Assembly (NCBI RefSeq): GCF_003334335.1
Contig: NZ_QOWQ01000004.1
Origin: Escherichia coli
GTDB taxonomy: Bacteria > Pseudomonadota > Gammaproteobacteria > Enterobacterales > Enterobacteriaceae
Strand: one strand, 5' to 3'
Length of the DNA: 64,000 bases
The notes beneath the pieces are model-generated. The model was not told where the DNA came from, did not search any database, and saw only the letters and a list, made by a program, of their open reading frames with translations. Positions 59,231 to 59,490 of the stretch are shown here, in pieces; position 1 is the stretch's first letter, and every line of letters begins with the position of its first letter. A program made the position numbers and the translations under genes.

Positions 59231-59490
59231 TGCCGGATGCGCTTTGCTTATCCGGCCTACAAAATCGCAGCGTGTAGGCCTGATAAGACGCGCCAGCGTC
59301 GCATCAGGCGTTGAATGCCGGATGCGCTTTGCTTATCCGGCCTACAAAATCGCAGCGCGTAGGCCTGATAAGACGCGCCAGCGTCGCATCAGGCGTTGAA
59401 TGCCGGATGCGCTTTGCTTATCCGGCCTACAAAATCGCAGCGTGTAGGCCAGATAAGACGCGTCAGCGTCGCATCAGGCGTTACATACCG
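59231..59490. repeat. Three tandem 85-bp REP/BIME units between araD and araA
   Basis: TGCCGGATGCGCTTTGCTTATCCGGCCTACAAAATCGCAGCGTGTAGGCCTGATAAGACGCGCCAGCGTCGCATCAGGCGTTGAA starting at 59231, 59316 and 59401 with a few point differences. Confidence 0.9.

Follow-up and report, generated by a model that had tools for sequence, protein, structure and literature searches.

A BIME-2 repeat array in the araA-araD spacer of Escherichia coli: architecture, allelic forms and probable role in the araBAD operon

The array and its main interpretation

The DNA analysed is a stretch of 64,000 nucleotides of Escherichia coli (contig NZ_QOWQ01000004.1, assembly GCF_003334335.1), referred to as the window, and the element studied is the repeat array which occupies most of the spacer between araD and araA. 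By its architecture this array is a BIME-2, a tandem series of bacterial interspersed mosaic elements (BIME) composed of repetitive extragenic palindromic (REP) units, and it is the already known, catalogued BIME-2 element of the K-12 araBAD operon. The best explanation as a whole, which we hold with good confidence, is that of a BIME-2 element which originated in place, is a target of gyrase and, in vitro, of TnpAREP (the REP-associated transposase encoded by yafM, the RAYT gene of E. coli), and would act in RNA in a way similar to REP325, the array of the yjdM-yjdN spacer. For K-12 the gain is small: the element was catalogued, mapped for gyrase and used as a biochemical substrate before. 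The new descriptive content is the census of alleles, which have one to four units or a BoxC/TMECO element and mostly go by lineage, and the turnover of hairpins across genera.

Architecture of the repeat

The window is K-12 sequence. Its positions 59000-59700 correspond to 66333-67033 of K-12 MG1655 at 100% identity, W3110 is identical with the same coordinates, and a window position equals the K-12 position minus 7333. Gene coordinates are those of the RefSeq annotation of the identical MG1655 sequence. Both flanking genes are on the minus strand: araA (L-arabinose isomerase, 59502-61004, stop codon at 59502-59504) lies upstream of the array in the operon, and araD (L-ribulose-5-phosphate 4-epimerase, 58522-59217, with its Shine-Dalgarno sequence AAGGAG at 59222-59227) lies downstream. 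The spacer extends over 59218-59501 (284 bp), of which 266 bp are array. Tandem Repeats Finder places the array, which as a whole has no strand, at 59231-59496, with a period of 85, 3.1 copies, 96% matches, no indels and a score of 490. The copies are in register from 59231, 59316 and 59401, with identities of 100%, 99% and 95% when compared over 96 nt, and because they are so alike a chance origin of the three 85-nt copies is excluded. The first-pass annotation, made from the sequence alone, had described three tandem 85-bp copies filling most of the 284-bp spacer, each with two inverted REP-like palindromes; both statements are correct, the two palindromes being one of the Z type and one of the Y type in opposite orientation. 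That annotation did not include the 0.1 extra copy, which is a truncated seventh palindromic unit (ACCGGATGCGGCTAC, 59487-59501, minus strand) directly adjoining the araA stop. Two plus-strand open reading frames, 59093-59314 and 59311-59505, were dismissed as coding sequences, being mechanical reads across the repeats.

Each 85-bp unit is composed, in this order, of a 29-nt Z unit (GCCGGATGCGCTTTGCTTATCCGGCCTAC), a 13-nt linker (AAAATCGCAGCGT), a 36-nt Y unit (GTAGGCCTGATAAGACGCGCCAGCGTCGCATCAGGC) and the 7-nt linker GTTGAAT. Y and Z are both imperfect palindromes, inverted to each other and each with an internal mismatch, and their predicted RNA hairpins have energies of -21.4 kcal/mol for Y and -14.3 kcal/mol for Z. 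All three Y units open with GTAGGCC and all three Z units close with GGCCTAC. The Z units, with the GTAG foot on the minus strand, are found by pattern match at 59232-59260, which is the one nearest to araD and ends 4 nt from its Shine-Dalgarno sequence, at 59317-59345 and at 59402-59430. The Y units, with the GTAG foot on the plus strand, are at 59274-59309, 59359-59394 and 59444-59479, and the last of these has an uncompensated change in the stem (GCCAGAT for GCCTGAT). The tail-to-tail linker AAAATCGCAGCGT (59261-59273, 59346-59358 and 59431-59443) differs more across alleles than any other part of the unit. The head-to-head linker is GTTGAAT at 59310-59316 and 59395-59401 and has the variant GTTACAT at 59480-59486; neither kind of linker was assigned a strand.

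Assignment to BIME-2

The palindrome foot GTAG/CTAC defines the REPs of E. coli; BIME-1 is a single Y/Z1 pair with a long L linker bearing a site for the integration host factor (IHF), and BIME-2 consists of tandem Y/Z2 pairs with short linkers (Ton-Hoang et al., PMC3333891), atypical BIMEs being chimeras of the two. The ara array is extragenic, lying between the araA stop and the araD start, and its units have many dispersed genomic copies, the 701-bp query having exact words of 28 nt in common with 24-26 places per K-12 chromosome. It has multiple tandem copies, linkers of 7 and 13 nt and no L motif, the 7-nt head-to-head linker being shorter than an L motif would need. Y and Z alternate, and the Z unit carries the Z signature GCCGGATG, yet the Z2 of REP325 is longer by 5 nt. 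The REP/BIME identity proposed at first pass is borne out by this alternation, by the GTAG/CTAC feet, by the related K-12 sites and by a published BIME-2 listing. With other E. coli BIME-2 elements (Gilson, Bachellier, Hofnung; Espeli and Boccard) the array shares the alternating inverted Y and Z units, the tandem arrangement, the short linkers, the extragenic position, the lack of an IHF site and the in vivo cleavage by gyrase; it differs from them in its short-stem, 29-nt variant of Z, where it is the centre that is shortened relative to REP325.

No match to the IHF consensus WATCAANNNNTTR was present on either strand of the array. Since IHF sites belong to BIME-1 and the linkers here are short and devoid of the consensus, IHF binding, which the first-pass annotation had named for arrays of this kind, is not expected. 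No intrinsic terminator was predicted in 59218-59501 on either strand, and no sigma-70-like promoter within the array. The longest U run of the sense strand is UUUU in a linker, where it stands ahead of a hairpin rather than behind one.

Gyrase and TnpAREP at the array

Table DS3 of Sutormin et al. (PMC6379681) lists the array as 'BIMEs2 66566-66813, <araD-<araA' with the remark 'Espeli, Boccard 1997: 2 cuts', and their Topo-Seq data contain three ciprofloxacin sites and three rifampicin-plus-ciprofloxacin sites at this place. Gyrase binding, also suggested at first pass, is in this way confirmed for the ara array by published in vivo cleavage. The raw cleavage sites form two series with exact 85-bp steps, 66656/66741/66826 and 66663/66748 (PMC6379681). 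Mapped to the window, on the premise that W3110 numbering equals that of MG1655 here and that the Mu strong-gyrase-site insertion in the reference of that study lies beyond 66 kb, they fall at an equivalent position (ccgga|Tgcg) in Z unit 2 (~59323 and ~59330), Z unit 3 (~59408 and ~59415) and the truncated unit (~59493). The strongest signal is that in the truncated unit (K-12 66826), just beyond the annotated BIME interval and 8-9 nt from the araA stop, with N3E values of 40/31/20 under ciprofloxacin and 87/57/23 under rifampicin plus ciprofloxacin (PMC6379681). As the signal persists or rises under rifampicin, cleavage is independent of transcription. In general gyrase prefers Y units, only a subset of BIME-2 is cleaved, and BIME-2 elements are above the genome average for the gyrase motif score (PMC6379681); the ara array deviates from the general preference, its published sites mapping to Z-type units.

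Oligonucleotides of the MG1655 araD-A spacer, B315 and B316, have served as substrates of TnpAREP in vitro (PMC3333891). The protein cut both, in single-stranded form, at iREP sites as well as in linkers, and by recombination it turned them into molecules that had gained REPs; the linker-type cut in B315, GGCC|TACA, is at the junction of the Z foot and the 13-nt linker (PMC3333891). The number of tandem BIMEs is known to differ between strains (PMC3333891).

Comparison of units between alleles supports duplication in place. Unit 1 of K-12 is equal to unit 1 of a two-unit allele, K-12 unit 2 is one base off unit 1, and K-12 unit 3 is equal to the sole unit of the one-unit and BoxC alleles. Two other Escherichia species have arrays of 3 and 4 units, in which most units are closest to another unit of their own array. 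An older single Y/Z pair, as it is still present in E. albertii and some E. coli, would have been duplicated in place, and the unit number changes as whole 85-bp units are gained or lost, by replication slippage, unequal recombination or TnpAREP. In engineering of the araBAD region the repeat may give rise to mis-assembly and recombination.

RNA structure and proposed role within the operon

Folding of the araA-araD junction, suggested as a check at first pass, gave a strongly structured sense strand (-140.7 kcal/mol, z = -5.3). In the minimum-free-energy fold the Shine-Dalgarno sequence of araD is unpaired. Alternative pairings are many, each arm being able to pair within its own unit or with a neighbouring one.

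Among the closest known systems is REP325 (naRNA1-6), which like the ara array is a tandem Y/Z series inside an operon, between co-oriented genes, and whose Y unit differs by one loop base. REP325 differs in its period of 100 bp, its 5.8 copies, its longer Z2 and its linkers of 13 and 17 nt. It is transcribed with its operon and is the best-studied model of a combined terminator and stabiliser. Its 12 Y/Z2 hairpins inside the yjdMN operon act as a partial Rho-dependent terminator, with expression of the downstream gene ~8-10 fold lower, and they protect the upstream message, yielding a ladder of hairpin-ended RNAs. Genome-wide, tandem gene pairs separated by REPs have raised ratios of upstream to downstream expression. 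Further examples are the REP stabilisers of malE-malF and hisJ-hisQ (Newbury, Stern, Higgins), intercistronic hairpins without a U-tract which were proposed to shield the upstream mRNA from 3' exonucleases. These two cases are experimentally supported; the likeness of araA-araD to them is one of placement and of hairpins without a U-tract.

By analogy with these systems a role of the ara array as mRNA stabiliser or as punctuation, as was put forward at first pass, is plausible. The array would be co-transcribed within the araBAD mRNA and would form six or seven stable hairpins that lack a U-tract. As barriers to 3'-to-5' exonucleases they would spare the araB-araA part of the message, and they would also give partial Rho-dependent attenuation ahead of araD, so that the number of units would tune the araBA:araD ratio. 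If it does, the natural series of alleles constitutes a ready test of the terminator-plus-stabiliser model of REPs in a well-understood inducible operon.

Several points weigh against such a role. Our literature searches found no transcript, half-life or protein data on the araA-araD junction. The effects of REPs on mRNA are reported to be context-dependent, some REPs having none, and the ara array departs from REP325 in its Z unit, 5 nt shorter as noted above. Loss of araD leads to build-up of L-ribulose-5-phosphate and renders cells arabinose-sensitive, for which reason strong attenuation ahead of araD should be selected against. Finally, tight selection on a particular dose is unlikely, because E. 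coli carries anything from one to four units and, in 29% of genomes, an unrelated BoxC element.

Unit number among E. coli

The alleles were surveyed in 5,426 complete E. coli genomes, of which 5,318 had both the araD and the araA flank. Shares of the single classes derive from two exact counts and from evenly spaced samples of ranked match lists. Spacers of 114, 199, 284 and 369 bp correspond to one, two, three and four units. In a sample drawn by the flanks only, with 59 usable genomes, the spacer was of 284 bp in 22, 168 bp in 19, 199 bp in 11, 114 bp in 6 and 423 bp in a single genome. Reading of representative alleles showed the 168-bp form to be one unit plus a 54-bp insert beside the araD Shine-Dalgarno sequence. 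The reverse complement of this insert contains CCCTCGCCCCTTTGGGGAGAGGGCCGGGGTGAGGGG, which is TMECO number 3, a BoxC/PIT element (PMC4666352 Table 1). The 423-bp form, which is rare, is BoxC plus four units, and a 162-bp form is a truncated BoxC plus one unit. Four units without BoxC (369 bp) were seen in one genome only, which is titled E. coli but is the reference of a separate GTDB species.

By exact count the BoxC junction is present in 1,566 of the 5,426 genomes (28.9%), and in nearly all of those sampled one unit stands beside BoxC. A query of one unit was covered to at least 80% in 3,301 genomes, again an exact count, which comprises the one-unit, two-unit and BoxC-plus-one alleles. Subtraction of these from the 5,318 flanked genomes leaves ~2,017 (37% of all) with at least three units. 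The estimated share of two units is ~20% and that of one unit ~8-10%.

The alleles follow the identity of the flanks and therefore lineage. Genomes with K-12-like flanks had three units in 12 of 13 cases, a block with 98.5-98.8% flank identity was almost wholly BoxC plus one unit, O157:H7 had two units, and more divergent strains had either three units with a different linker or one unit. At first pass the copy number had been offered as a candidate strain-variable character, with the reservation that an identical three-unit structure in all E. coli would leave it without strain-specific interest. Such uniformity is not the case, as alleles of one to four units or with BoxC were seen, and the number does differ across E. 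coli; it is, however, mostly fixed within lineages and does not vary strain by strain. Two mismatches between allele and lineage indicate recent gain or loss of units. Strain EH08-18-36 (L008) has flanks 100% identical to K-12 and one unit only, equal to K-12 unit 3, and strain Z226-6 (H57) has a two-unit spacer amid flanks typical of the BoxC group.

BoxC/PIT/TMECO elements resemble the ara array in being GC-rich, palindromic and extragenic and in occupying the same spacer, in E. coli as well as in Klebsiella, Kluyvera and Pseudocitrobacter. They differ in belonging to an unrelated sequence family (CCCTCNCCC...GGGNGAGGG...GGGNGAGGG) which can form a triplex. BoxC is absent from K-12 at the ara site; its insertion point in other strains corresponds to window 59218-59231, between the araD Shine-Dalgarno sequence and the nearest Z unit. 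Examples are L002:519-686, L006:519-686, L007:301-723 and L091:151-312. The G-rich, triplex-forming strand of BoxC is the sense strand of araBAD, and the context of the Shine-Dalgarno sequence is CAGGAG in BoxC alleles and AAGGAG in those without BoxC. A fold of the BoxC allele in which part of this Shine-Dalgarno sequence paired with the coding end of araA depended on the fragment chosen and was disregarded.

The spacer in other Enterobacteriaceae

The length of the spacer, from the stop codon of araA to the start of araD, was measured in 79 of 80 Enterobacteriaceae species genomes, those in which both genes were found. E. albertii has a single unit in a spacer of 114 nt, and Citrobacter and Salmonella have one Y/Z-like pair in 93-100 nt. 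In many Enterobacter species the spacer is 47 nt long and has one palindromic unit, which is specific to the genus. The spacers of Klebsiella, Kluyvera and Pseudocitrobacter contain BoxC-like elements, from one to three of them. In Leclercia, Phytobacter and Franconibacter a GC hairpin with U5-6 behind it stands immediately ahead of the araD Shine-Dalgarno sequence; in total ten spacers had a hairpin plus U-tract directly before araD. An attenuating role of the junction fits with these terminator-like hairpins at the same place in other genera. A Z unit beside the araD Shine-Dalgarno sequence occurs at the same position in Escherichia, Salmonella, Citrobacter, Enterobacter and Kluyvera.

Of the spacers longer than 30 nt, 70 of 77 fold better than their shuffles at z < -2 (median -3.9), by the rough control of 30 mononucleotide shuffles per spacer. 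Exceptions in length are L028, with a spacer of 11 nt, and L077, where araA and araD overlap. The enterobacterial spacer thus nearly always keeps a stable hairpin, while the kind of hairpin turns over by genus. One could go further and propose that the junction needs a structured element across the Enterobacteriaceae and is repeatedly refilled with unrelated hairpins, and that in E. coli the one to four units or BoxC set a heritable araBA:araD ratio and hence L-ribulose-5-phosphate levels and arabinose tolerance; we regard this wider proposal as quite unlikely.

Among the sequences compared, CACSKA010000010.1 (L050), titled Chryseobacterium sp. 18061, carries an enterobacterial araA-araD with an AraD 95% identical to that of E. 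coli and a spacer with a REP pair resembling that of Citrobacter. Probably this assembly contains contaminating DNA or bears the wrong label.

Alternative explanations

It is possible, although we tend to doubt it, that the array is a selfish or neutral repeat which the cell tolerates. Its units would be non-autonomous elements spread by RAYT/TnpAREP, the spacer a permissive site for them to land and expand in, with no function in the operon and a unit number that drifts. This reading would account for the range of one to four units among E. coli, for BoxC in the spacer of 29% of the genomes, for the different elements which genera have at the same site, for the uncompensated stem mismatch in K-12 unit 3 and for the action of TnpAREP on the ara sequence in vitro (PMC3333891). 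It accounts less well for a stable hairpin in the spacers of 70 of 77 species, including even the shortest ones of 47-57 nt, for a Z unit kept in position beside the araD Shine-Dalgarno sequence across five genera, and for in vivo cleavage of the array by gyrase (PMC6379681); in addition REP325 measurably affects its own operon.

An explanation mainly at the level of DNA is in our view unlikely. The array would be a fixed gyrase site which removes the positive supercoils ahead of RNA polymerase upon induction of the strong araBAD promoter, or which insulates araBAD topologically from polB, and the RNA hairpins would be incidental. The in vivo cleavage, persisting or increased under rifampicin, is in accordance with this, as is the gyrase motif score of BIME-2 above the genome average (PMC6379681). 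However, cleavage at the array is of moderate strength, gyrase cleaves some BIME-2 elements only (PMC6379681), and lineages with a single unit or BoxC grow and have intact ara genes; no phenotype is known.

We give little credit to the idea that the array controls translation of araA. Liang, Rudd and Deutscher are said to have found in 2015 that a REP whose start is within ~15 nt of a stop codon makes the ribosome stall at termination, brings tmRNA into action and reduces the output of the upstream protein. The truncated unit does start right after the araA stop, the first predicted RNA helix being ~7 nt and the first complete Y hairpin 22 nt past it. That first helix is, however, a weak alternative pairing of the half-unit with the next unit, and the junction, being shared by all alleles, cannot account for differences in unit number.

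It is very improbable that the units encode nucleoid-associated RNAs like naRNA4, which would bind HU and condense the chromosome. Two matches to Rfam naRNA4 (RF02564), a model derived from the units of REP325, each of one Z and one Y hairpin, are found on the minus strand, which is the araBAD sense, at 59277-59342 and 59362-59427. With 60.2 bits they pass the gathering score of 59.5 marginally, by 0.7 bits, and the third unit, at 31.3 bits, falls short of it. As the model is in effect a generic Y + Z2 pair, any such pair scores. According to a 2026 preprint, co-authored by the senior author of the first naRNA4 study, REP325 and naRNA4 neither compact the nucleoid measurably nor enter into a stable ternary complex with HU and cruciform DNA. 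With the function of the family disputed, membership in naRNA4 was not adopted as a functional claim.

Least credible of all is an IHF-binding BIME-1 (RIP/RIB) element, for which there is the general association of some BIMEs with IHF and nothing specific to the ara locus, and which is refuted by the tandem arrangement, the linkers of 7 and 13 nt and the lack of the IHF consensus on both strands.

Other features of the window

Four further REP sites, units or pairs, are present in the window at 18396-18409, 27392-27405, 31847-31875 and 43016-43029. They coincide with the published BIME-2 intervals 25711-25796, 34728-34763, 39152-39233 and 50328-50364, and none of the four coincides with gyrase cleavage sites. 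Between the end of araD and polB (56096-58447) a 10-bp palindromic hairpin, AAACCAGGCT...AGCCTGGTTT, is located at 58465-58491; it was scored as terminator-like on the plus strand, and read on the minus strand it is a candidate for the araBAD operon terminator. Rfam matches above the gathering score were the sok antitoxin RNA at 3815-3967 on the minus strand (118.8 bits), tpke11 at 2353-2430 on the plus strand (69.6 bits) and the ES003 sRNA at 22198-22250 on the plus strand (87.4 bits), all of which are known features of K-12.

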